In this document: positions 5,689 to 18,156 of the stretch, piece by piece
How positions within the stretch are numbered: position 1 is the stretch's first letter
Layout: each line of letters begins with the position of its first letter
Assembly: GCA_029258755.1 (NCBI GenBank)
Contig: JAPDKC010000009.1
Location: 46,967-110,966, forward strand
Reading direction: 5' to 3'
Length of the DNA stretch: 64,000 nt
Source of the DNA: an archaeon
GTDB taxonomy: Archaea > Iainarchaeota > Iainarchaeia > Iainarchaeales > DTGL01
Made by a program: the position numbers and the translations under genes
The notes under the pieces: generated by a model
Told to the model about the DNA's origin: nothing
What the model saw: the letters and a program-made list of their open reading frames with translations, nothing else
Database searches by the model: none

Positions 5689-6837
5689 TCAGCAAACCCT
5701 AAAACCCGTGTATTCTCTCCTCTTTTCCGGGATCTCCCTTATGAACTCTTCCAGATACCTTTTAACCTGCAGCGCTTCATCTATGCTCTTTATCTGCTCC
5801 TTCGTTTTGAGGTTTATCAGCTTTGTTTGCTTGCCTCTTCCGATTTTGATCAAGAACTCCTCTTCAGCCTCGCCGTTTCCATTCTCTTCGAACTTCTCGA
5901 GCTTCCTCAACCGCTTCAGCAGTTTCCTCTTCTGCTCCTCCACTTTCTGGGTGAACACCTTAACAGGATCGAGGATGAAGTAGTTTCTCGGCGTTGTGTT
6001 TGAGCATCTTACCAATCCGCAGTTTATGAGCTCCTTCAGAACAGCGTAAACAGTTGCCTTGCAGATGCCGGTTTCGTCCATTATCTGCTTTGCGGTTTTG
6101 ACCTCGCTTGAAAGAAGGTTGCAGCGCTTCAGCTTCCTCATGCAGAGCTCTGCCCTTATGTCCAGCTGATTCAATGCAGTTTCTTTGTCTTTGAATGCTT
6201 TGGTATTGCATGGAACGACGATGTAGAATAGCCTGTTCCTAACAGCGTTTTCCTCAATGAAATCCTGAACGAACCTTTTGAAAGCCTGGAACTGCTCCCA
6301 TAATTTTTTCGACTTTCTCTTCTCAACTTCAAGCCCCAGATCAGCCAGATACTCATTGAGCGAGAGGTTCACGGTTCTCACAACTATCTGAATCGGGAAG
6401 CTCAATGCATTGAGAAAGTCGCGGAAAGCACTTATTACTGCTTTCTGCTCCATTGCGGAGAGCATGGAAAAGCTTATCGGCACCACCTGCAGAACAGCGC
6501 AGGCTTTGCCATCATCGAGGATTATCGCATCCCTTTCAACTCTCGAAACCCCTACAAAACGCCTAGCTTTCTCATCGAAGTAACCTGCTTTTGTGCCTGA
6601 GAGCTTGAACGAAACGATAGCTTTGAGCTTTTCAAAGAGGTTGAAGAATGCAAAGGAAACGCCGAGAGAGATCAAAACAAGGGAAAGCCCGACTTTTAGC
6701 TCAAAAAGCATTGCAGTTTTGAAGAATATTACTGCTGCAATGCCGGTAAATAAGCCTAACCAGAAAAGCTGCGGAAGGCTGAGCCCGAAGAGGATCTTTT
6801 CCTCATACTTAAGCTCTTTTGGAATCTCATAAGCCAT
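5689..6837 (-). CDS. PrgI/VirB3-like 2-TM domain plus VirB4-N-terminal-like domain plus C-terminal winged-HTH; no ATPase domain
   Basis: KELKYEEKILFGLSLPQLFWLGLF matches the PrgI/VirB3 family N-terminus, with two TM helices. The following region (DAIILDDGKACAVLQVVPISFSMLSAMEQKAVISAFRDFLNAL) resembles the VirB4/TrbE N-domain. The C-terminus is a wHTH (ETGICKATVYAVLKELINCGLV) plus coiled coil. No Walker A is present. Confidence 0.4.
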   Translation of the reverse strand: MAYEIPKELKYEEKILFGLSLPQLFWLGLFTGIAAVIFFKTAMLFELKVGLSLVLISLGVSFAFFNLFEKLKAIVSFKLSGTKAGYFDEKARRFVGVSRVERDAIILDDGKACAVLQVVPISFSMLSAMEQKAVISAFRDFLNALSFPIQIVVRTVNLSLNEYLADLGLEVEKRKSKKLWEQFQAFKRFVQDFIEENAVRNRLFYIVVPCNTKAFKDKETALNQLDIRAELCMRKLKRCNLLSSEVKTAKQIMDETGICKATVYAVLKELINCGLVRCSNTTPRNYFILDPVKVFTQKVEEQKRKLLKRLRKLEKFEENGNGEAEEEFLIKIGRGKQTKLINLKTKEQIKSIDEALQVKRYLEEFIREIPEKRREYTGFRVC

Positions 6838-6887
6838 TGCAAGACCTCGCAGAAAGGTTTAAATATTCCTGAAAGATAGTTTTAAGT

Positions 6888-7286
6888 ATGATAAAAAATA
6901 TTGCAAAACCATCAGGGGAAGAATCCAAAGGGAAATTTGACTGGGTTAAAAATTCTGCTTTAGCCGTGATCTTTTCCGCTGTCGCGCTTTGGGTTACTGC
7001 GTTCCCCTTTTTTATTAGAGGATTCTTCAAAGGGGCAAATAGGGAATTATTAGTCTTATTTGTTATTATCACGCAGTCCATTTTGGTTCCAGCTGTGCTT
7101 GTAGTCTCTTTGATAGGGCTAGCTTTGGGGGTTGTGGGGTTGATTTTAGAGCTTAGAAAGGCTGAAAAGGACCGCATCAGGCTGTTGACAGCAGTAATGG
7201 CCATTTGCGGTAATTTATTTGCTTTTATGGGCGCATTTGAAGTAGCGGCGCCGGTTTTTGTTCTTTCGTTTTGGAAGTATTTTTGA
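6888..7286 (+). CDS. Small multi-TM membrane protein (hypothetical); the strand call is uncertain
   Basis: 132 aa with 3-4 clear TM helices. The competing minus-strand ORF 6827..7294 is low-complexity (T/S/K/N-rich), as expected for an antisense reading of a hydrophobic gene. Confidence 0.3.
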   Translation: MIKNIAKPSGEESKGKFDWVKNSALAVIFSAVALWVTAFPFFIRGFFKGANRELLVLFVIITQSILVPAVLVVSLIGLALGVVGLILELRKAEKDRIRLLTAVMAICGNLFAFMGAFEVAAPVFVLSFWKYF

Positions 7287-7293
7287 TAGGCCA

Positions 7294-8256
7294 TTATATC
7301 ACGGCTCCTGTAACAGCTTTTGCAACAACCACAAGCTCGGGGTTCTGAGATGCAACCGAGGATAGGCCTTTCAATATTGCAATAACCAAAATTGCCGCAT
7401 TCACAACAGCCGCAACAATGAAGCCCACAGCAAGCGCGAATGTTCCAAAGTACTCAAGCGATGCAAACTGAGTTGTGAGCATGGAAATGCCTAAAAGCAA
7501 AGCGGCATCGATAACCTGCATGAACACGATTGCACCGAAGAAGTTCAGAATCACAGAATCCCAAGCGCGCAAAGGAATTATGAAGTAGAGGAAAATTCCT
7601 ATTGGGATGAAAATCACACCCAAAATCAAAAAGAGCTGGCGCAGTAAAAGGGTTATTGCAAGCAAGAGTGCTCCAAAAGCGTAAAAAACAATCCAGAGCA
7701 AATTCAGGGCATCGAGCTGAGCTATATCAAACAGCGAATCGAGCTTTTCAGTCCAGATTGTCAGAGCAACAGCAGAGCTGAGCTGGAGCATAAGAGAATA
7801 GAGCAGAAGAGAGGCGTTGACAGCAACCACAATAACAACAGCGTTTTTCAGCCACTCCTTTGCGCTTTTCCTCTGCACAGCATCGTACGAACCAAGAAGA
7901 AACTTCAAACCTGCAAAAACGAACAGCAAAAGGTAAAAGCAAGAGATTACTGAAACAATCACGAGCCACAGATCCTGAAAATCGTAAGGGTTTATGTTGT
8001 TCAGAACCATTGCTTTTATGAAATCGAGGATCGGAGCTACAAAGGAAACAACTGTGCCTTTGAAGGAGTCCAGAATCGCATTTGCAACGTTGCAGGCAGG
8101 TTCGAAACGGAATCCCAGAGGCCTGCGCTCGCGTTTGAGAGCAAAAGCACAAGAAACAAAAGCGGCATTAAGAAACGAGCTCTCACAGCAGACCACCCAG
8201 TACTTTTTTTGCTGCAAAAAGTGTTGCGAAGTAGAGCGAAACAAATATGCTTCCAT
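7294..8256 (-). CDS. Polytopic integral membrane protein (VirB6/CedA-like?)
   Basis: At least 6 TM helices across about 240 aa. It sits in the operon between the pilin-like and VirB3/B4-like genes. The true start may be the internal Met (MVLNNINPYDF...). Confidence 0.4.
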   Translation of the reverse strand: MEAYLFRSTSQHFLQQKKYWVVCCESSFLNAAFVSCAFALKRERRPLGFRFEPACNVANAILDSFKGTVVSFVAPILDFIKAMVLNNINPYDFQDLWLVIVSVISCFYLLLFVFAGLKFLLGSYDAVQRKSAKEWLKNAVVIVVAVNASLLLYSLMLQLSSAVALTIWTEKLDSLFDIAQLDALNLLWIVFYAFGALLLAITLLLRQLFLILGVIFIPIGIFLYFIIPLRAWDSVILNFFGAIVFMQVIDAALLLGISMLTTQFASLEYFGTFALAVGFIVAAVVNAAILVIAILKGLSSVASQNPELVVVAKAVTGAVI

Positions 8257-8443
8257 CGAAAGCGGTTTTTCCAGCTTTTTTGAGAGTAAACGAGAAAGTG
8301 CTTTGCTTTGGTGGTTCGGATATACTCAAAGCAACCGAACTCTGCGCGTATGGACCCTTCAGAATCCGAACTCAGGAATTCGGTTTTCGCTACGCCGTTT
8401 TCATCGGTTAGCGCTTTTATTCTCTGCCTGCCGTTGAAGAAAA

Positions 8444-9646
8444 CTATTTCCTTATTTGCAAGGGTTTTCCGTTTGAGGTGAGAACAGCGGTTGCAAGTAC
8501 ATAATCGTTCTCTGAAAAGCTGCCGGAATTGAGAGAAAGTGAGAGCTCTGCGGGCTTTGCTTCAATTAAACACTTATTGCTCAGATCGAACTCTTCGAAT
8601 GCGGAATAAAGCTTCATTTTGCAGGCAGGGGCTTTCGCAAAGCCAAGCTTAATGAGCTTTCTTTTTGGGCTGAGATTGGAATTAAGATCTATTAAGCCGC
8701 GCGCTGATTTTCCAAGAGCGCTTTTGCGGACCACGAAAAGAACACCGTAAGGCTTGAGTGTTGAAGCAATGTCGAAGTTTTCTTCGGAAAAGGAAAAGCT
8801 GTTCTTGCCAAAAGAAACTGTGAACTCATTTACCGGCATGGTTGATTCAATCATGTAGCGGGCTTCACTTATGCCATCTTTGAGCTCAACAGCGCTCGCG
8901 AGATTGAAGTCAAAGAAATAAGCCTTTGCTCTGAACTCATCGCTCAGCTTTAAGGAATCTGTTCGCTCTGTTGTTTTGTAGTAGTCGCATGAGGTCCAGC
9001 AGTAGATTGTGCATACCTCATTGCAGAACTGCGCGCAATGCGACTGCTTTCGAAAATGCTTTTCAATGAGCTTTGCTTTTATGAACAGCTCTGCTGAAAA
9101 ATTCAGATCTTTTTCTTTGCCTGCCGAGTAGCTTGAAACTTTTTGCGAGCCTATTTTTGAGCCATTGAGGAAAACGCTAAGATTGTCTGCAAGCACTTTG
9201 TAGGAGCGCTCTGTTTTGCAGTCGTGCTCTGCTGTGTCTTTTGGCAATACAATTTCAAAATTGCCTGCCACTAGCACCCTGCCGCTTGGCTCAGCATACC
9301 ATTGGTTGGAATCGAGATCAAAGAAAGATCTATCAATAGCAATTATCTTCAGCCAAGCGTTTTTTATTATGCCTGAGCTGTGCTGCTGCAAGTTAGCGGG
9401 CGCTTCGCTGAAATTGAGCGAGTTGTTCCAATTCCAAATGAAAGCATAATCCGGCAGTACGCCCTGCTTGCTTAGAAGGTTGAGATACAGATCCTCTTTT
9501 TGCTCAACGCTGAGGGATTCATCTGCAAGGATGTTCTCGCACTCTGACTTTTTCCAGCCGTTGAGATGATCGCAGTTGGCTGGCAGTATTGCTGAGTAAG
9601 CCGAGGTAATCAACAGTATGCAAAACAAAGCAACAAAGCCTTTCAT
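8444..9646 (-). CDS. Secreted cysteine-rich protein (signal peptide), hypothetical
   Basis: N-terminal signal MKGFVALFCILLITSAYSA and multiple Cys clusters (CDHLNGWKKSEC; HCAQFCNEVCTIYCWTSCDYY). No recognised domain. Confidence 0.45.
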   Translation of the reverse strand: MKGFVALFCILLITSAYSAILPANCDHLNGWKKSECENILADESLSVEQKEDLYLNLLSKQGVLPDYAFIWNWNNSLNFSEAPANLQQHSSGIIKNAWLKIIAIDRSFFDLDSNQWYAEPSGRVLVAGNFEIVLPKDTAEHDCKTERSYKVLADNLSVFLNGSKIGSQKVSSYSAGKEKDLNFSAELFIKAKLIEKHFRKQSHCAQFCNEVCTIYCWTSCDYYKTTERTDSLKLSDEFRAKAYFFDFNLASAVELKDGISEARYMIESTMPVNEFTVSFGKNSFSFSEENFDIASTLKPYGVLFVVRKSALGKSARGLIDLNSNLSPKRKLIKLGFAKAPACKMKLYSAFEEFDLSNKCLIEAKPAELSLSLNSGSFSENDYVLATAVLTSNGKPLQIRK

Positions 9647-9655
9647 GGAATCTCC

Positions 9656-9979
9656 TTAAGCTGCTGTTAAGAAGTTAACCAAGTATGGAGCGATCCAGAT
9701 TATGAGCAGGCCCATTACTGCATAAGAAAGCATCTGCTTGGCGCTTTCTCTTGCCTGTATGTTCTCGCCGGAAGCCATGAAGCGGAAGCCTGCAAATGTA
9801 ATAACCAAGACAGCAACAATGGAAATTAGTGTTTGCACAACCGTGTATATGCGCTCCAATGGCTCCTTTATTTTTTGCAGGTTCTCATCGCTGGTATCAG
9901 CTGCGTGCACAAAAGGCGCAGCTGAAAGCATAAAGAAAATCAAAGTCGGGACCAAAAGAGGAATTAAAGCTTCTTTCAT
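9656..9979 (-). CDS. VirB2/TrbC-like (CedA1-like) small 2-TM pilin-like protein
   Basis: 107 aa: a signal-like N-terminus ending AAPFVHA, then two hydrophobic helices separated by a short polar loop. An SD-like GGAGGTG lies 5 nt upstream of the ATG. Confidence 0.4.
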   Translation of the reverse strand: MKEALIPLLVPTLIFFMLSAAPFVHAADTSDENLQKIKEPLERIYTVVQTLISIVAVLVITFAGFRFMASGENIQARESAKQMLSYAVMGLLIIWIAPYLVNFLTAA

Positions 9980-10095
9980 AGCAGCACCTCCAAGGTTAAT
10001 TAAGGTGCTGTGCTGAACCGAAAATATATTAAAAAGAAGGGTGAAAAGAGTCTGTGGAAAAGGGCGACTATAAAATAAAAAGAGTGTAAAAAATA

Positions 10096-10923
10096 TTATT
10101 TTTCTAAATAGGCTATTGTTTTTTCTATTAGCTCAGATACTTCCAAAAATCTGCCTACTATAATCTTTTTTCGGAGAGCTTCTTCTGTTTCCTTAAAATC
10201 GGGATAACGTGCACCAACATATTTAACAAGCACCATTGACAGAACACTAAATATGAGCAAAAGAATATACGTCTTTTTCAGTGTTTTGTATAGAAAGTTA
10301 AAATTAAATCTTTTCTTATTAGCTAACTTAGCTTCTTTCAGCAAGCGACTTGAGGAAAATATGGAAGACTGTATCGCTAAAAGTTGAATAGAGTCTATCT
10401 TGGCCATTTTTTTGATACTTTTAATTAATTTAGGATACTCCTCAATCAAGTTTGCAATAGTTTCATCTTCAGAGCTTTTCAAAGAAATTTTATTAAGATT
10501 TAGGCTTTTAAGGTAATTTTTCACCTTTTTGATAGCACTTTTATCACATCCAGCGATTTTTAACGTGTAGCTTTCCAAAGAACTTAAATTGGAAAGCCAT
10601 TTATCCCTAAATGGTTTGAGCATTTTAATTAATTGATCTACCCAGTCATGGCCAAACTCTTTTAAAGAGTTAACTTTGAATTTTTCTAAACCAAATCTAC
10701 GTAAAAGCTCTTCATTCTCGTTTGAAAACACTTCTTGAGGCCATAAAAGGCCTATGTCTACAATCGCTCCTTTGCTGGCTTTCTCTACAGATTGTTGAAG
10801 AGCAAATAATGCCTGTGGGTAATATCTGTGAGCGTAGGCATACTTGGCCATTTCTAAGTCTCTCTTGGCGTACTCATACCATTTTTTTGAATCCAAACAA
10901 AGACAATGTTTAGAGTTCTTCAT
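10096..10923 (-). CDS. HEPN-domain protein with C-terminal TM segment
   Basis: The N-terminus YEYAKRDLEMAKYAYAHRYYPQALFALQQSVEKASKGAI resembles the HEPN fold. A hydrophobic segment (ILLLIFSVLSMVLV) lies near the C-terminus. Confidence 0.35.
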   Translation of the reverse strand: MKNSKHCLCLDSKKWYEYAKRDLEMAKYAYAHRYYPQALFALQQSVEKASKGAIVDIGLLWPQEVFSNENEELLRRFGLEKFKVNSLKEFGHDWVDQLIKMLKPFRDKWLSNLSSLESYTLKIAGCDKSAIKKVKNYLKSLNLNKISLKSSEDETIANLIEEYPKLIKSIKKMAKIDSIQLLAIQSSIFSSSRLLKEAKLANKKRFNFNFLYKTLKKTYILLLIFSVLSMVLVKYVGARYPDFKETEEALRKKIIVGRFLEVSELIEKTIAYLEK

Positions 10924-11061
10924 AAAATTTATTGTTTAAAGTAAAGCAGAAAAAAGGACCCTTGGCGTTATTTATATTAAGAGGGCAATCAATAGGATTT
11001 TATTTTTTATTAATAATAGATGTATTATGGCTAGAAAAAAACTTAGGGAAATGCCTAGACG

Positions 11062-11451
11062 TTGTCAAAAAAAATACTGGGCAGGGAAGAAGTACTACTT
11101 GTCAAAAGCAACACCAACCGTAAAAGTTTCAGGATATGTAAGAAAAAAGATGAGGCTTATAATACAATCATTCTAGACCGCACAATTAAATTTCTTGAGG
11201 CTCGTTTGATTGAAGCAGGCGTAGCACAAATTAGCCCGCAACTATATGTATGTATTAAGGTTATAGAAAAAATTAATGACCTCAAGGAAATTTTTGATGC
11301 AATTGAAAATGGCGAATCTGATAGGGCCCTTGCTCTGCTCGTGGAACGGGGCATATTTGAGAGTATAGAAAGTGCGAGAAGGAAGGAAGATATGTTTAGA
11401 AAAATAGAAACATATTATTGGGAAGAAATAGGGGGAACTTTAAGTGTATAA
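11062..11451 (+). CDS. Hypothetical protein
   Basis: ORF only. Its end overlaps the next ORF by 8 nt, suggesting an operon. Confidence 0.3.
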   Translation: MSKKILGREEVLLVKSNTNRKSFRICKKKDEAYNTIILDRTIKFLEARLIEAGVAQISPQLYVCIKVIEKINDLKEIFDAIENGESDRALALLVERGIFESIESARRKEDMFRKIETYYWEEIGGTLSV

Positions 11452-11746
11452 AGAACCTTTAGATCGTGATGCTCTAATAAAGGCAGTACTAAAATTTTTG
11501 TGTATAGATGATCTGCTGGCCAGCGAAAAGAAAAAGCTTAAAAAGGGAGAATTAGTTGAGTTTCTTAAAGAAGAACCCCAACTAAGAAATCTGCTCAATG
11601 AAGCATTCGAAAAAGGGTGCAAACCGTATTTAAAAAAGGAAATAATAGATAACAAAGAATTGGAACGAATCTACGGAGAGTGTATCTGGAGGATGCACTC
11701 TTACCTTAAACAGCTAGAAGAAGAAAAAGGAAAGATAAAGAAGTAG
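11444..11746 (+). CDS. Hypothetical protein (GTG start)
   Basis: ORF only; overlaps and is probably co-transcribed with 11062..11451. Confidence 0.3.
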   Translation: MYKEPLDRDALIKAVLKFLCIDDLLASEKKKLKKGELVEFLKEEPQLRNLLNEAFEKGCKPYLKKEIIDNKELERIYGECIWRMHSYLKQLEEEKGKIKK

Positions 11747-11750
11747 AATT

Positions 11751-12266
11751 TTAATAATCCTCCGGCTTCATAAATGTACAGCTGCAACCATCAAGCACAA
11801 CCCATATTCTGCCCTTTTCAATCACTCGTAATCTCATATATTCTGTATCTTCTGGATCCGGCTTCTTAAGAAGCTCAATTCCTTTCTTTACAATTTCCTT
11901 GTAATTGTCCTTTACTTCTTCGAATAGGTTCATTGTGAAAACTATTGGCTTTCCATTAGCAAATTCACCTACCTTTACCAGAACACCATCTTCAATCGCC
12001 TGCTCAAGCGGATAGCTGTCAATCACTTCGCCGAAGAATTCTTCTGGAGAAGGAGCGGCCGTTTTCTGGCCACTCCCGTTGTTTCTTATGCGCTTCACTT
12101 CGAACTCAAGGAACTGATTAAGTCTGTTTGTTAATTCCTGCTTTACCTCGAGCATGTCATCGGTTTCTTCAAGCGCAACAGTAGCACCAATGAGTATGCC
12201 TTTGCTTTCATAGTTGCCAAGGTTGATCTTTCTGGAAACGCTTACTGTGAGCTCTTTAAGCTTCAC
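11751..12266 (-). CDS. Hypothetical protein
   Basis: 171-aa ORF with no recognisable motif. Confidence 0.35.
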   Translation of the reverse strand: MKLKELTVSVSRKINLGNYESKGILIGATVALEETDDMLEVKQELTNRLNQFLEFEVKRIRNNGSGQKTAAPSPEEFFGEVIDSYPLEQAIEDGVLVKVGEFANGKPIVFTMNLFEEVKDNYKEIVKKGIELLKKPDPEDTEYMRLRVIEKGRIWVVLDGCSCTFMKPEDY

Positions 12267-12629
12267 CTGCGATCACCTCCTTTGTATTGGTTTCTGCAGC
12301 GCCAGTCAAGCGCTTCAGCCCAGCGAACAGGCTCAGGAAGCAGGTAGTCATAGCTCTGCTTTTCGCTGAGCTTAACCGAATTGAAAAAACTTTTTTGCAA
12401 GCGAGCCACCTCCTAAAAGTTTTTTCTGGAGGCGGTTTGTGGATTTTGGTGGTATTAAATCCTTTCCGAAAGGCGCGGAGCGTGCTTGCTTGCAAGCAAA
12501 AGGTTTAAACCAGCAAAAGCCAGGCCGGAAAGAAAAAACTGGAGGTGGCGAGCGAAAAAGTTGCAGAGAGGTTAAGCGGAAAGCGGCAGAGTACAGATTT
12601 TTCAATGTGGGCGGCCAAAAATAGTAAAA
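12267..12629 (+). ncRNA. Candidate structured ncRNA (possibly SRP/7S RNA); strand tentative
   Basis: This 360-nt intergenic block has much higher GC than its surroundings and only short overlapping ORFs of odd composition. There is long-range complementarity: GCCACCTCC (12405-12413) with GGAGGTGGC (12540-12548), and AGTTTTTT with AAAAAACT. The motif CCAGGCCGGAAAG resembles the SRP RNA helix-8 apex. Confidence 0.35.
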
Positions 12630-13316
12630 TTAACGTCTAGACGGCCATTTTTTCCTGTTTTCGTTAATAAATCTCGCGGGAGAAACTGCAATAATGGGTG
12701 GTTTAATATCCCCAGTACTTTTGCCAAATTTTTCTAATAATTCAGAATCATTAGTGATAAAATACTTACAACCTTGGTAAACTGCTTGGGCAAGCAGATG
12801 AGCATCATTGCATAATAAACCGTGTTCTGAAATAAAAACCCCTGCTATTCCAAATAATTCTTTACTTTCTCTTGCTATTTTTGCATGTTTTTTAAGTTTA
12901 TTAAAGTATTCTTTGTTTTTAAGATAAATATCAAGATAAGTTCCTTTGGGAAATTTTTCTTTTCTTAATCTATAAAACTCTTCAATGGGAATAAAATTTC
13001 TATCCATATATCTTAAAATGTATTTTTCAAAAAGGACACTTAGAACTTCGGTCATGACCAGAGGCGAATAATAAAATTCGAAACCTTTGTTTTCACGGCA
13101 GACAAAGTGTTCAACGAATTCATACGACTGATAAAAAGTTTTTATGTATTTGTTACTATTAGTCCTTTGTTGTTCAATAAAGTCATTCTTTTCTTTTGTT
13201 GTTTGTTTTTGTGCAAGCAACGAATGAAAAATCAGCCAGTTAGCAATTACATTTGAATCAATTAAAGATTTTATCACAATTCTTGCATTTCCTCCAACCT
13301 TTTTTACTGGAGGCAA
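12630..13316 (-). CDS. PIN-domain protein
   Basis: Acidic residues at PIN positions: LIDSNVI ... VMTEV ... ITNDSELL. Confidence 0.4.
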   Translation of the reverse strand: MPPVKKVGGNARIVIKSLIDSNVIANWLIFHSLLAQKQTTKEKNDFIEQQRTNSNKYIKTFYQSYEFVEHFVCRENKGFEFYYSPLVMTEVLSVLFEKYILRYMDRNFIPIEEFYRLRKEKFPKGTYLDIYLKNKEYFNKLKKHAKIARESKELFGIAGVFISEHGLLCNDAHLLAQAVYQGCKYFITNDSELLEKFGKSTGDIKPPIIAVSPARFINENRKKWPSRR

Positions 13317-13962
13317 ATTATTTCCTCCTCCTAATATAGAAAGACACTCTTTTGCCGTCCCTTGTTTTAAAACTAACTTTAATTCTCCTTTTCAGTTTTT
13401 TACTCTTCCTGGTTTTTCTTTTTGTTTTCCCCATTTTACTCTATTTTATAACGACTTTATCTTTATTAATTCTTTTTGTTCCTCGTTGCTGTTAACTTAT
13501 TTGGGATCTCATATCTGTTTGGCTTTTTAATTTAAGAATATGGATGTTTGGTACATGCAAAAGTTCCACATCCCTACTTAGTTAACATTACCTTGTTCCT
13601 CCAAGGCTTAAACGAAATAGAAGTATTTTAAAAGAGAGCTAACAAGAAAATAAGGGGCAAATATGTCCAATTCATCTTTCTTTATTATTTACCGAAATAG
13701 AAGTCTGCAAAATAAACATTAATTTTTCCAACATTGTATTATAAAGCGGGCAAAATTAAAAATAGAATTTTTTAAGGCGAAAAATTCGAAAAAACCCCTA
13801 CTTTAGCTTTAAAGCGAAAAACAAGCTGTTTAGGCGCTTCTTTTACTAGCCATAAAATTTATAAACACTACAAAGCGTATAATTATTATAGTGGGTAAGT
13901 CCAAGCCAGCTCGTGTACCGGATGGTGCACTTTGCCAATAGGCTGGCTTGGGTCCACAATTT

Positions 13963-14589
13963 CTATTTCCATAATATCATGTTTTCTTTGTTCTCAATTT
14001 TCTCTTCAATTATTCTGAAGTAGTGATCATCGCCGGCGTTGAATTTTCTGTTTATGCTCCATGCAACAAAATCCACCACCTGCAGCTCGTTGCTGGCAAA
14101 AGATGGCTTGTGGAATATCTCTATATCCAACTCCTTGCACTTTCTTTTCAGCTTCCTCTTAATATAGCCATTGAAGTCCTCTCTCACAAGAGTGTTTGTA
14201 TGTTTTTTATCTATTGTGATTATCACTTTTCCTTTGTCCAAATTGAGCTCGTTTAGCAGTATGCCACACAGGTAATTGTAAAGCTTGTTCTTCACATCGA
14301 AAAGATAATCTTTAATCTTGTTTTTCTCAACAACTATGGCAAAAATGCGGCAGTCTGTTCTCTTAATTCTTTCTAGCACATATTCTCTTATCCGTTGGTT
14401 AGACTTGTTCGCTTTGATTTCAGGCATTTGCTTTATGGTTTTCTTCAGCTTTATCTGTCTCAGCCTTTTGATTATTCTTGCTAATTTCTTCGGCTCATCA
14501 ACCAAAACAGCAGCAACTGTGAAATACTTTGAGCCGAACTTTCCCAGATCACCGCTCTCATCTATGCAAACATAGTTAAGCCAGCCCAT
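13963..14589 (-). CDS. DUF3800-family protein
   Basis: N-terminal YVCIDESGD motif characteristic of DUF3800. Confidence 0.5.
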   Translation of the reverse strand: MGWLNYVCIDESGDLGKFGSKYFTVAAVLVDEPKKLARIIKRLRQIKLKKTIKQMPEIKANKSNQRIREYVLERIKRTDCRIFAIVVEKNKIKDYLFDVKNKLYNYLCGILLNELNLDKGKVIITIDKKHTNTLVREDFNGYIKRKLKRKCKELDIEIFHKPSFASNELQVVDFVAWSINRKFNAGDDHYFRIIEEKIENKENMILWK

Positions 14590-16665: not shown

Positions 16666-17895
16666 TTAAAGTTCCCTATTTTGCCCATCTAAAAGTAACT
16701 GCTGCTGCATTGAAGCCAAAATCTGCTGAACTCTGTCAGGATTCGCCTTTGAAAGGCTCTTGACCATATCTAACAGCTGAACCAGAACAATTGAGCTTTT
16801 CTCATCCAGATGCTTTATCTCGTCCACTTCGTATTGGGCTGAAGGTTTCAATGGAAGCCAGCACTTCTCGCAGTATTCAAAGGTGACATCGTTTACATGG
16901 CTACAGCGGGGGCACTTCAAAGGCTTCAGAATATCTTCTTTCTTTTCCTCCTTCTTCAGACCGTAGAGTTTCAGGATTGCATCGTCCATCTGCTTGCCGC
17001 TCAAGTGCACATAGCGAGCTGCCATATCCGAATCGCGGACCCATCCAAAGTATTCTTTCATCTGCGCTTCCGTCAAGAACTGCGCCAAGTAGGTTGCTCT
17101 GGAGTGTCTGAAGTTGTGCGGGTTCACAGGTTTTTTCAGGCCTACCCTTCTTGCAATTTTGTGAAGCTGGAGCCTTAGTGCATCATAAGTCATCAAAGAA
17201 ACTTTGTCCACATTTGTGCTGACCCAGAGAGGCGCTTCCGGATCCTCTCTTCTGGGATGGTGGTTTATCCACTCCAGAAGGTAAAGAGCAGCACTAACCA
17301 GGCGGATTCTTCGCATGCCTGTTTTTCCGTTTATTGTGATCTTACAGCCAAATTCATCAAAGGCGACATGCTTTATTTTCATTGTTCCGATTTCGCCAGC
17401 TCTCGCACCGGATTCCCAGAGGACCGCAACAAGCGCTTTGTCCCGTTTGTTCTCGCAGAATTTGAGAAGAAGCTTTACATCCTCTGGTGTGAGCAGCTCC
17501 TCAGGAAGCTTCTTGATTCGGTTTTCCTTGACACGCATCCAAGCAACACATTCTGGGTACTCGTTGTTGCCGTTGAGCCACTTGTGGAACACTTTAAGGA
17601 CCTTGATGTAGGTGTGCACGGTTTCTTGAGATAGCCCCCTTCTCTTGAGCTCTGCTATGAATTTCATGTAATCTTCCTTTGTGGCTTTATCAAAGTCTTT
17701 ACCCAAAGCGATAGCAACAATTTTCAGAATATTTGTTTGTCTTGATATTCTCGCAACACTGAGATCTCTGGCAAAGTTGTAGTCGTGGAATTTGAGAATC
17801 AGCTCTTTGTTGTGCTTCGATATCTTTTTGGATTTTTTAATGGATTCTATTTCCTTATCTAAAAGCTTCTTATAATCGTGGAATTTTTCATACAT
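16666..17895 (-). CDS. Tyrosine-type site-specific integrase/recombinase
   Basis: C-terminal catalytic region contains R (WESGARAGE), HNFRHSRATYL and ARYVH. An N-terminal SAM-like core-binding domain is present. Confidence 0.85.
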   Translation of the reverse strand: MYEKFHDYKKLLDKEIESIKKSKKISKHNKELILKFHDYNFARDLSVARISRQTNILKIVAIALGKDFDKATKEDYMKFIAELKRRGLSQETVHTYIKVLKVFHKWLNGNNEYPECVAWMRVKENRIKKLPEELLTPEDVKLLLKFCENKRDKALVAVLWESGARAGEIGTMKIKHVAFDEFGCKITINGKTGMRRIRLVSAALYLLEWINHHPRREDPEAPLWVSTNVDKVSLMTYDALRLQLHKIARRVGLKKPVNPHNFRHSRATYLAQFLTEAQMKEYFGWVRDSDMAARYVHLSGKQMDDAILKLYGLKKEEKKEDILKPLKCPRCSHVNDVTFEYCEKCWLPLKPSAQYEVDEIKHLDEKSSIVLVQLLDMVKSLSKANPDRVQQILASMQQQLLLDGQNREL

Positions 17896-17955: not shown

Positions 17956-18096
17956 AAAAAGCCAACGCCCAGGCCGGGATTCGAACCCGGATCGCAGCCT
18001 TCCTGCAATTTGCTGAATATTAGCAGCGGGTTGCTGGGGATAATAAGGACCCGCTGGAGGTCCTTATTTCGACAGGGCTGCATCCTAACCCTTAGA
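17956..18096 (-). tRNA. tRNA-Asp(GTC) with a 69-nt intron in the anticodon loop
   Basis: Minus-strand read: acceptor GCCCAGG/CCTGGGC, T-arm CCGGGTTCGAATCCCGG, anticodon stem CAGCC/GGCTG with loop CT-GTC-G...A. The intron forms strong hairpins (AATAAGGACC/GGTCCTTATT). No CCA is encoded. Confidence 0.6.
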
Positions 18097-18156
18097 CTAC
18101 CTGGGCACAGCTTAATAAATTATAAGTTAGGTGCAAGGTTTAAAAAATAATTACTT

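Follow-up and report, generated by a model that had tools for sequence, protein, structure and literature searches.

Conjugation-type pilins were long regarded as belonging to diderm bacteria; exceptions have recently come from the Crenarchaeota (the Ced and Ted systems) and from the Patescibacteria. In Ced and Ted, a membrane protein resembling VirB6 and an ATPase resembling VirB4 are present as well. They are described as reduced archaeal derivatives of type IV secretion systems (T4SSs) that have a VirB2-like pilin and import DNA between archaeal cells (Beltran 2023, PMC9905601). The Patescibacteria, or candidate phyla radiation (CPR), are reported to combine a T4SS of the monoderm type (PrgI/VirB3, VirB6 and VirB4) with VirB2-like pilins (Quinonero-Coronel 2025, PMC12102498; Wang 2023, PMC10633639), and the first of these accounts describes the monoderm MPF-FATA systems as being without VirB2 pilins (PMC12102498). 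Here we analyse a locus in a 64,000-nt stretch of DNA from an archaeon of the Iainarchaeota (assembly GCA_029258755.1, contig JAPDKC010000009.1, positions 46,967 to 110,966), the whole of which is called the window; related loci are given L numbers. A pair of adjacent genes at 8444-9979 very probably encodes a pilin and a frameshift-broken surface protein, and would head a decaying T4SS pilus operon that has lost its ATPase and lies in an integrated element of a DPANN archaeon.

The pair consists of a 107-aa open reading frame (ORF; 9979..9656) and a 400-aa ORF (9646..8444), both on the minus strand. The gap between them is 9 nt, as given by the first-pass annotation, which was made from the DNA letters alone. 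Each ORF is preceded by a Shine-Dalgarno-like motif, that of the pilin being GGAGGTG at 9986-9992. The features that make up the pair are:

9656..9979, minus strand: predicted pilin gene of the TrbC/VirB2-type T4SS family, intact, 107 aa (Pfam, hydropathy, orthologue alignment)
8444..9646, minus strand: truncated surface-protein ORF, 400 aa, corresponding to residues 1-396 of a ~487-aa protein and reaching into the beginning of its Ig-like domain (alignment to intact relatives)
8183..8462, minus strand: out-of-frame remainder of the surface-protein gene, with the rest of an immunoglobulin (Ig)-like domain and a C-terminal transmembrane (TM) anchor (L005 alignment, three-frame translation)

Comparison of the 107-aa protein with Pfam gave 44.1 bits for TrbC (PF04956, curated cut-off 27.9) and 41.5 bits for T4SS_pilin (PF18895, curated cut-off 26.6). 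Kyte-Doolittle analysis revealed a hydrophobic N-terminus running to AAPFVHA and further hydrophobic segments at ~41-72 and 82-107, confirming the N-terminus and the two hydrophobic helices that had been read from the sequence by the first-pass annotation. Alignment with nine orthologues from related loci yielded 17 invariant columns. Common to the aligned pilins are a signal peptide with a small-residue (A-x-A-like) end, predicted to lie between VHA and A, followed by an I..P(L/V).KIY motif, a first TM helix, a loop of the form SG(D/E)NIQARE.AK and a second TM helix to which that loop connects the first. A profile search returned at least 555 clusters related to the pilin, and both Pfam pilin domains were present in all 120 clusters listed. 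Several of those listed are labelled 'pilin' or 'TrbC/VirB2 family protein' by NCBI and come from Candidatus Diapherotrites (Iainarchaeota), Micrarchaeota and unclassified archaea, as DPANN metagenome-assembled genomes (MAGs). Because the Pfam scores pass their cut-offs, the topology fits, the family alignment is conserved and at least 555 related clusters exist, the 107-aa protein is assigned as a predicted TrbC/VirB2-type T4SS pilin. This was one of two options offered at first pass, and it is borne out both by the TrbC and T4SS_pilin scores and by the conserved pilin-VirB6-VirB3-VirB4 operon described below. Related pilins keep the company of VirB6, VirB3 and VirB4 in L008, L011, L012, L013, L016 and L020, and the window pilin's own VirB6 and VirB3 neighbours are damaged copies only. 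No solved homologue was found in the PDB by phmmer with the sequence or by profile search, and tblastn against PLSDB (72,556 plasmids) gave no match on plasmids.

Alignment indicates that the 400-aa ORF is a frameshift-truncated copy of a family of ~487-aa surface proteins. Its close relatives are 11 proteins, those 88-89% identical to it being 487 aa long and the distant ones 487-493 aa. Relative to the intact locus L005 (90% nt identity), the window has a 1-nt deletion at ~8462, which leads to a stop codon at 8444 and hence to the early end of the ORF, and a 1-nt insertion of an A at ~8270 that restores the original frame. Frame-by-frame translation showed that the lost C-terminus can still be read in other frames down to 8183, as ...LANKEIVFFNGRQRIKALTDENG... 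and as the TM anchor TAFDGSIFVSLYFATLFAAKKVLGGLL before the stop. AlphaFold2 (AF2) models (pLDDT 68 overall, 81 for the N-terminal part) show intact members starting with a signal peptide and three helices that bear the KEDLYL motif. Beta-sandwich domains come next, among them a hairpin with strands of ~30 residues, then an Ig-like domain towards the C-terminus, and last a TM helix whose tail is basic. The window ORF has the N-terminal features of the family and, owing to the frameshift at ~8462, lacks most of the C-terminal Ig-like domain as well as the TM anchor with its basic tail. A fold search with the surface protein returned generic beta-sandwiches, and the Ig-like domain scored 15-18 bits against Pfam Big_1, below the cut-off of 34.9.

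Within the truncated protein, the single hydrophobic segment is N-terminal. The local Pfam and NCBIfam libraries gave no match, in keeping with the earlier description of a secreted protein without a known domain. The same description counted '14 or more Cys in clusters', which needs correction: there are 11 Cys, 10 of them past the signal peptide, and the sole true cluster is C204-x3-C-x3-C-x3-C-x3-C220. About six Cys are conserved family-wide, and the C-x3-C cluster is restricted to a close subgroup. Over residues 1-396, the family alignment has K50-L55 (KEDLYL), C36, C143 and C220 of the window protein as invariant positions, with C25, C342 and C359 close to invariant. The C-x3-C motif (x5; aa 204-220, window 8987-9037) lies at the turn of the ~30-residue beta-hairpin in both AF2 models. 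In distant family members an aromatic/hydrophobic tip, such as FWAGGIFPHY, takes its place.

To describe the wider family, we searched 1.84 billion representatives exhaustively with a profile and obtained 1611 matches at E<1e-3, including 428 at <1e-10. Many of these are giant Ig-repeat proteins aligned through the Ig domain only. Among the top 150 matches, ~100 are full-length (380-560 aa, 4-16 Cys), and nearly all of these ~100 are hydrophobic both at the N-terminus and in a C-terminal segment, so that they, like the intact relatives, keep the Ig-like domain and anchor end of the family. A word-indexed profile search found no further members. Two relatives of the surface protein carry a weak precomputed label, PF26589 (DUF8186), and PF26593 is likewise a precomputed label. 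Identity with a VirB5 pilus-tip adhesin, with VirB8 (NTF2-like) or with F-plasmid TraN was considered and rejected, the characteristic folds of these proteins being absent from the surface protein.

The pair is the start of a longer operon, and the following further features of it were recognised in the window:

7294..8186, minus strand: gene for a VirB6/TrbL-like polytopic membrane protein, broken by a 1-nt deletion at ~8092
6838..7287: insertion of ~450 bp that separates the VirB6-like gene from the VirB3-like one and carries a 132-aa multi-TM ORF (6888-7286, plus strand)
5689..6837, minus strand: chimeric 382-aa ORF, with a PrgI/VirB3-like TM region and a VirB4 N-terminal domain (aa 1 to ~250) followed by a TrmB-family helix-turn-helix C-terminal part
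10021..10035, minus strand: candidate archaeal TATA-like box TTTTTAATATATTTT, ~49 nt 5' of the pilin ATG, read from the sequence

The TATA-like stretch is also kept in L005 and might act as a promoter element. Alignment to L005 and translation showed that the deletion at ~8092 cuts off the first 32 codons of the VirB6-like gene from the rest. Over residues 31-297 the remnant is 94% identical to its L005 counterpart of 297 aa, and the listed 320-aa ORF at 8256..7294 has a spurious N-terminus. The precomputed TrbL_3 match on the VirB6-like orthologues is weak in L005 and L017, and no such match is marked in L020 and L021. The ~450-bp insertion is missing from the intact relatives, the window alignments to L005 and L007 breaking there, and its 132-aa ORF is 100% identical in L017 and matched no family. 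The 382-aa ORF matches Pfam PrgI and TrmB as well as NCBIfam VirB4_plasma at profile positions 3-270 of 894. Its junction, at ~6105-6117, is in frame; likeness to L005 stops at 6105, and the same junction is found in L017. The TrmB part represents the C-terminal two-thirds and matches L008 16771-17307, where the TrmB homologue lies ~3.5 kb further downstream, past VirB4. Searches for T4SS genes covered the 64 kb of the window out of the 115-kb contig, and tblastn with three VirB4 queries detected no VirB4 ATPase domain there, only an N-terminal fragment at 6837-6088. We attribute this arrangement to a deletion that took out the VirB4 ATPase gene and joined the VirB3-like gene to that of a TrmB regulator.

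Comparison with an independent assembly from another sample (L017, run SRR22214790), which has 98% nt identity to the window over 10070-6037, showed that both deletions (~8462 and ~8092), the insertion and the fusion are also present there; the extra A at ~8270 is specific to the window. Since L017 carries them too, these lesions are real and inherited. The intact loci L005, L006 and L007 have 90-92% nt identity to the window, the highest value being that of L006, a Ca. Iainarchaeum MAG (92%). A functional T4SS requires a VirB4 ATPase and an intact VirB6-like protein; the window locus has no intact VirB6-like protein, and no VirB4 ATPase is encoded within the 64 kb. The operon is thus judged, from its sequence, to be a decaying remnant with the pilin as its only intact gene. 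These lesions, together with the loss of the ATPase, mean that the locus cannot build a pilus by itself, and a working pilus/adhesin pair is unlikely here because the surface ORF is truncated inside a degraded operon without an ATPase. The first-pass proposal of such a pair was right largely in kind, in that the smaller protein is assigned as a pilin and a surface partner is reasonable; what it overlooked is that the second ORF is truncated by a frameshift and that the two genes begin a longer, degraded T4SS operon.

To see the operon in its intact form, we examined related loci from a scan of one genome per species and from contig look-ups. Twelve distinct loci carry the surface-protein gene, mostly in Ca. 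Iainarchaeum (Iainarchaeota/Diapherotrites) and Micrarchaeota MAGs, together with a Methanosarcinales contig (L016), and a pilin gene lies immediately upstream of it in every locus that has upstream sequence. The third gene of the related operons encodes a polytopic membrane protein of 275-304 aa with a precomputed TrbL_3 match (VirB6-like). The fourth gene product, ~310 aa long, combines a PrgI (VirB3) region with a domain that bears the precomputed label 'TraC-like'. The fifth is the VirB4 ATPase, 738-752 aa, with P-loop_TraG, AAA_10, DUF87/HerA and CagE_TrbE_VirB domains (L008, L011, L012 and L013). The VirB3 and VirB4 genes occupy the following positions:

L008, 12319-15891: VirB3/VirB4 genes
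L011, 12313-15612: VirB3/VirB4 genes
L012, 9346-12726: VirB3/VirB4 genes
L013, 12164-15547: VirB3/VirB4 genes
L016, 12052-15060: VirB3/VirB4 in a single gene

The Methanosarcinales contig has the same gene order with a single VirB3-VirB4 protein of 1002 aa, residues 1-240 of which align with the ~310-aa DPANN proteins and residues 252-960 with the ~745-aa proteins. Because the one protein spans both, the DPANN lineages have VirB4 divided between two genes. On a 788-kb DPANN contig (L020) the order is integrase, three small genes, pilin, VirB6-like, VirB3-like, VirB4, DUF4145, SRAP, VRR_NUC, PolB and TrmB. The surface-protein gene is absent from L020 and L021, and the existence of an operon without it makes the surface protein an accessory component. 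A full-text literature search found no paper describing a T4SS operon of this kind in DPANN, Micrarchaeota or Iainarchaeota. The operon family thus seems undescribed in the searchable literature, although its pilins have already been named by automated annotation.

Two further loci differ from this pattern. On a 985-kb DPANN contig (L018, 10001-10891) a pilin gene lies near a homologous integrase and is followed by two small ORFs only, with a 1120-aa DUF87 protein 2 kb off; this suggests that decay or rearrangement of such pilin operons is recurrent. A contig binned as Candidatus Falkowbacteria (L015, 8210-10351) carries a DPANN-type pilin (61% identical) and a 131-aa fragment of the surface protein. 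The N-terminus of a neighbouring protein there, MNFRAQASLEYLMTYGWALILIVVV, resembles an archaeal class III signal peptide. The contig is probably a mis-binned archaeal one; transfer between CPR bacteria and DPANN archaea is a less likely origin.

Upstream of the operon, the window contains two features of an integrated element:

16666..17895, minus strand: tyrosine integrase (Pfam Phage_integrase)
17966..18106, minus strand: intron-containing tRNA gene beside the integrase and directly upstream of it (Rfam tRNA, 48.9 bits, 141-nt span)

The integrases that lie upstream of the pilin operons in L001, L012, L018 and L020/L021 share 31-41% identity with that of the window (E 1e-57 to 1e-80). The tRNA gene, found by Rfam and missed by ARAGORN in bacterial mode, is the probable integration target of the element, and its intron suggests that the genome is archaeal. 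The T4SS segment at 5700-10050 has a GC content of 43-49%, and its flanks 31-37%. Between the integrase and the pilin operon, the region 10096-14589 encodes HEPN (10096-10923), PIN (12630-13316) and DUF3800 (13963-14589) proteins, which look like defence or toxin-type cargo. A RusA gene takes the place of the HEPN block in L017, marking this as a variable region of the element. Together, the homologous integrases, the adjoining tRNA gene, the GC island and the gene order of L020 indicate a family of integrated mobile elements, and they point to tRNA-associated, integrase-bearing elements, common in DPANN archaea, as putative carriers of the operon family.

From these comparisons a working model of the intact operon can be proposed, in which pilin, surface protein, VirB6-like protein, VirB3 with the N-terminal part of VirB4, and VirB4 ATPase are encoded in this order. 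The pilin would be exported via its signal peptide, cleaved after VHA and kept in the membrane as a two-helix hairpin, until the VirB6/VirB3/VirB4 machine pulls it out and assembles it by polymerisation into a pilus of the conjugation type. The surface protein would be exported, stabilised by disulfides and tethered to the cell by its C-terminal TM helix, displaying beta-sandwiches and an invasin-like Ig domain. It may aid contact or adhesion, or support the base of the pilus, in mating-pair or cell-to-cell contact. Transfer of the integrated element is the most likely purpose of the operon, which might alternatively serve DNA import or host contact.

Selection and recombination bear directly on whether the pair is a relic. 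The ratio of nonsynonymous to synonymous substitution rates (dN/dS) of the pilin is 0.02-0.04 in every comparison, including that between the two degraded copies (window and L017), and residues 1-396 of the surface protein have a dN/dS of ~0.2. Of the 76 mismatches between window and L017, 73 fall between ~10199 and ~9000, covering the upstream region, the pilin and the N-terminal half of the surface gene, and 3 in the remaining 3 kb. The boundary of this tract is sharp, near 9000-9050, and the clustering indicates that the 5' segment was exchanged by recombination in one lineage. The low dN/dS of the pilin could simply represent variation imported from functional copies; because the differences sit in the recombination tract, selection acting in place on the truncated ORF cannot be separated from imported variation.

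Several points weigh against our account of the locus. The strong purifying selection on the pilin could mean continued use, perhaps by another T4SS that the genome encodes at a different site. Among the neighbouring genes scanned in the window, L001, L008, L011, L013, L016 and L020, many of them without a Pfam match, none was recognised as a relaxase or a VirD4-type coupling protein, and for this reason conjugation as the purpose of the operon is something we infer. Archaeal conjugative plasmids, too, are reported to be without a recognisable relaxase (PMC12857230). Searches for direct repeats and tRNA fragments found no attachment (att) repeats of the element, nor its other end (attR). The role in contact, adhesion or the pilus base, most likely for the surface protein, is drawn from its architecture and gene order. 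The first of these points leads to a rather unlikely alternative, in which the pair has kept its function: a second, intact T4SS elsewhere in the genome would use the pilin and possibly also the truncated product, now a soluble secreted protein, with gene conversion preserving the 5' part. The low dN/dS of the pilin even between degraded copies, the tract over the pilin, upstream region and N-terminal half of the surface gene, the dN/dS of residues 1-396 and the Shine-Dalgarno motifs kept on both ORFs all agree with this. However, no second T4SS gene was found in the 64-kb window, the synonymous-biased differences may have been imported with the recombined segment and not selected in place, and the window protein lacks its TM anchor and the greater part of its Ig domain, which are conserved features of its family. 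It is very unlikely that errors of sequencing or assembly produced the frameshifts and the fusion and that the operon is actually intact. The extra A at ~8270 lies in an A-run, is not found in L017 and could be an error, but both deletions, the 450-bp insertion and the 6105 junction recur in the independent assembly, neither deletion lies in a long homopolymer, and the other long genes of the window are intact.

A different question is what the intact operon does. We consider it unlikely that it is an apparatus for host contact or uptake and not a conjugation device, with the Ig-like anchored protein binding the host cell. Its gene set is minimal (VirB2, VirB6, VirB3 and VirB4), in the loci scanned neither a relaxase nor a coupling protein was noticed nearby, and the pilin family is very widespread among DPANN MAGs. 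Parallels are available in the T4SSs with VirB2-like pilins that epibiotic Patescibacteria are reported to need for growth (PMC12102498) and in the archaeal DNA importers Ced and Ted (as described in PMC9905601), and ultrasmall cells and ectosymbiosis are reported for DPANN archaea as for Patescibacteria (PMC11420986). Against this, the operons adjoin tyrosine integrases and, in L020, PolB; their content is patchy, the surface protein being absent from L020/L021; and decay is repeated (window, L017 and L018). Integrase linkage, patchiness and repeated decay together suggest the behaviour of mobile-element cargo and not of an essential organelle for host interaction, and the relaxase is unrecognisable also in the archaeal conjugative plasmids mentioned above. 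A more specific form, that the intact operon is the DPANN counterpart of the Patescibacteria T4SS, a pilus device for host contact and for exchange of DNA or other molecules with the surface protein binding the host, seems to us similarly doubtful; if true, the recombining pilin and N-terminal segment would reflect changes in host specificity. The first-pass annotation had also considered a fusellovirus-type capsid or virion envelope, and it is extremely unlikely that the pair encodes envelope or capsid proteins of a cryptic fusellovirus-like archaeal virus. Such a virus would share the generic topology of the pair, in which a secreted protein comes after a small protein with two TM helices, and an integrase lies <7 kb away, but the smaller protein passes the cut-offs of the T4SS pilin models and the neighbours are homologues of VirB6, VirB3 and VirB4. 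PHROGs gave no structural match (the pilin hit only a family of unknown function, E 4e-5, and the surface protein nothing), a BFVD search of viral structures returned only generic Ig/FN3 decoration domains with TM-scores <=0.2, and no capsid, portal or terminase genes lie nearby. With nothing specific from PHROGs or BFVD and no viral gene context, identity with archaeal virus capsid or envelope proteins, such as fusellovirus VP1/VP3, was rejected.

A decaying T4SS pilus operon in an integrated element is thus the reading that we prefer. By itself the window locus, a system of a known kind that is in decay, matters little. Of wider significance is the compact operon to which it belongs, which is widespread in DPANN, is also found on a Methanosarcinales contig, consists of a pilin, an optional Ig-like anchored protein, VirB6, VirB3 with the VirB4 N-terminus, and VirB4, and usually lies beside a tyrosine integrase. 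This family provides candidates for DNA exchange or host contact by uncultivated, host-dependent archaea, and the surface-protein family, which is uncharacterised, is a testable partner of the pilin. The degraded window copy and its intact, 90%-identical relatives form a natural before-and-after series of element decay. The DPANN operon family and its accessory surface protein are worth a dedicated survey.

How does the DPANN operon compare with known systems? Its surface protein recalls the Big_1 adhesins of the invasin/intimin type but differs from them in having one such domain, which scores below the Big_1 cut-off, no beta-barrel anchor and no C-type lectin tip; in the window copy, this Ig-like domain is mostly lost to the frameshift. 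With the monoderm MPF-FATA systems (PrgH/PrgI/PrgJ, and adhesins such as PrgB) the operon shares the PrgI match, a VirB4 of the P-loop_TraG/AAA_10 type and a cell-anchored surface protein encoded with the machinery. Unlike the MPF-FATA adhesins, the DPANN surface protein has no detectable homology to a Pfam or NCBIfam family and is anchored by a C-terminal TM helix. The pilin resembles TrbC/VirB2 pilins such as Agrobacterium VirB2 and RP4 TrbC in its hidden Markov model match, its long signal peptide and its two TM helices with a short charged loop, and it likewise heads an operon with VirB6, VirB3 and VirB4 homologues. In contrast to those systems, the DPANN host is a single-membrane archaeon, the operon contains no VirB5, VirB7-11 or VirB1, and the pilin has no detectable solved homologue or PLSDB plasmid match.

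Ced and Ted, according to the published description, are found in Sulfolobales and Thermoproteales, and the DPANN pilin profile matched no solved pilin structure; the DPANN operon further differs from them in its PrgI/VirB3 module, its ~487-aa surface protein and the integrase-bearing element that carries it. Compared with the T4SSs of the Patescibacteria, it is archaeal, has one pilin gene and not arrays, a split VirB4 and an association with an integrase. It also encodes an Ig-like, C-terminally anchored accessory protein, whereas the CPR dataset, as far as the published account presents it, contains no detected adhesins. The window copy is decaying, and so does not indicate that the system is essential. 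What the two have in common, as the Patescibacteria systems are described, is VirB2-like pilins that the same two Pfam models recognise, a majority of clusters without a relaxase, and ultrasmall hosts with reduced genomes.

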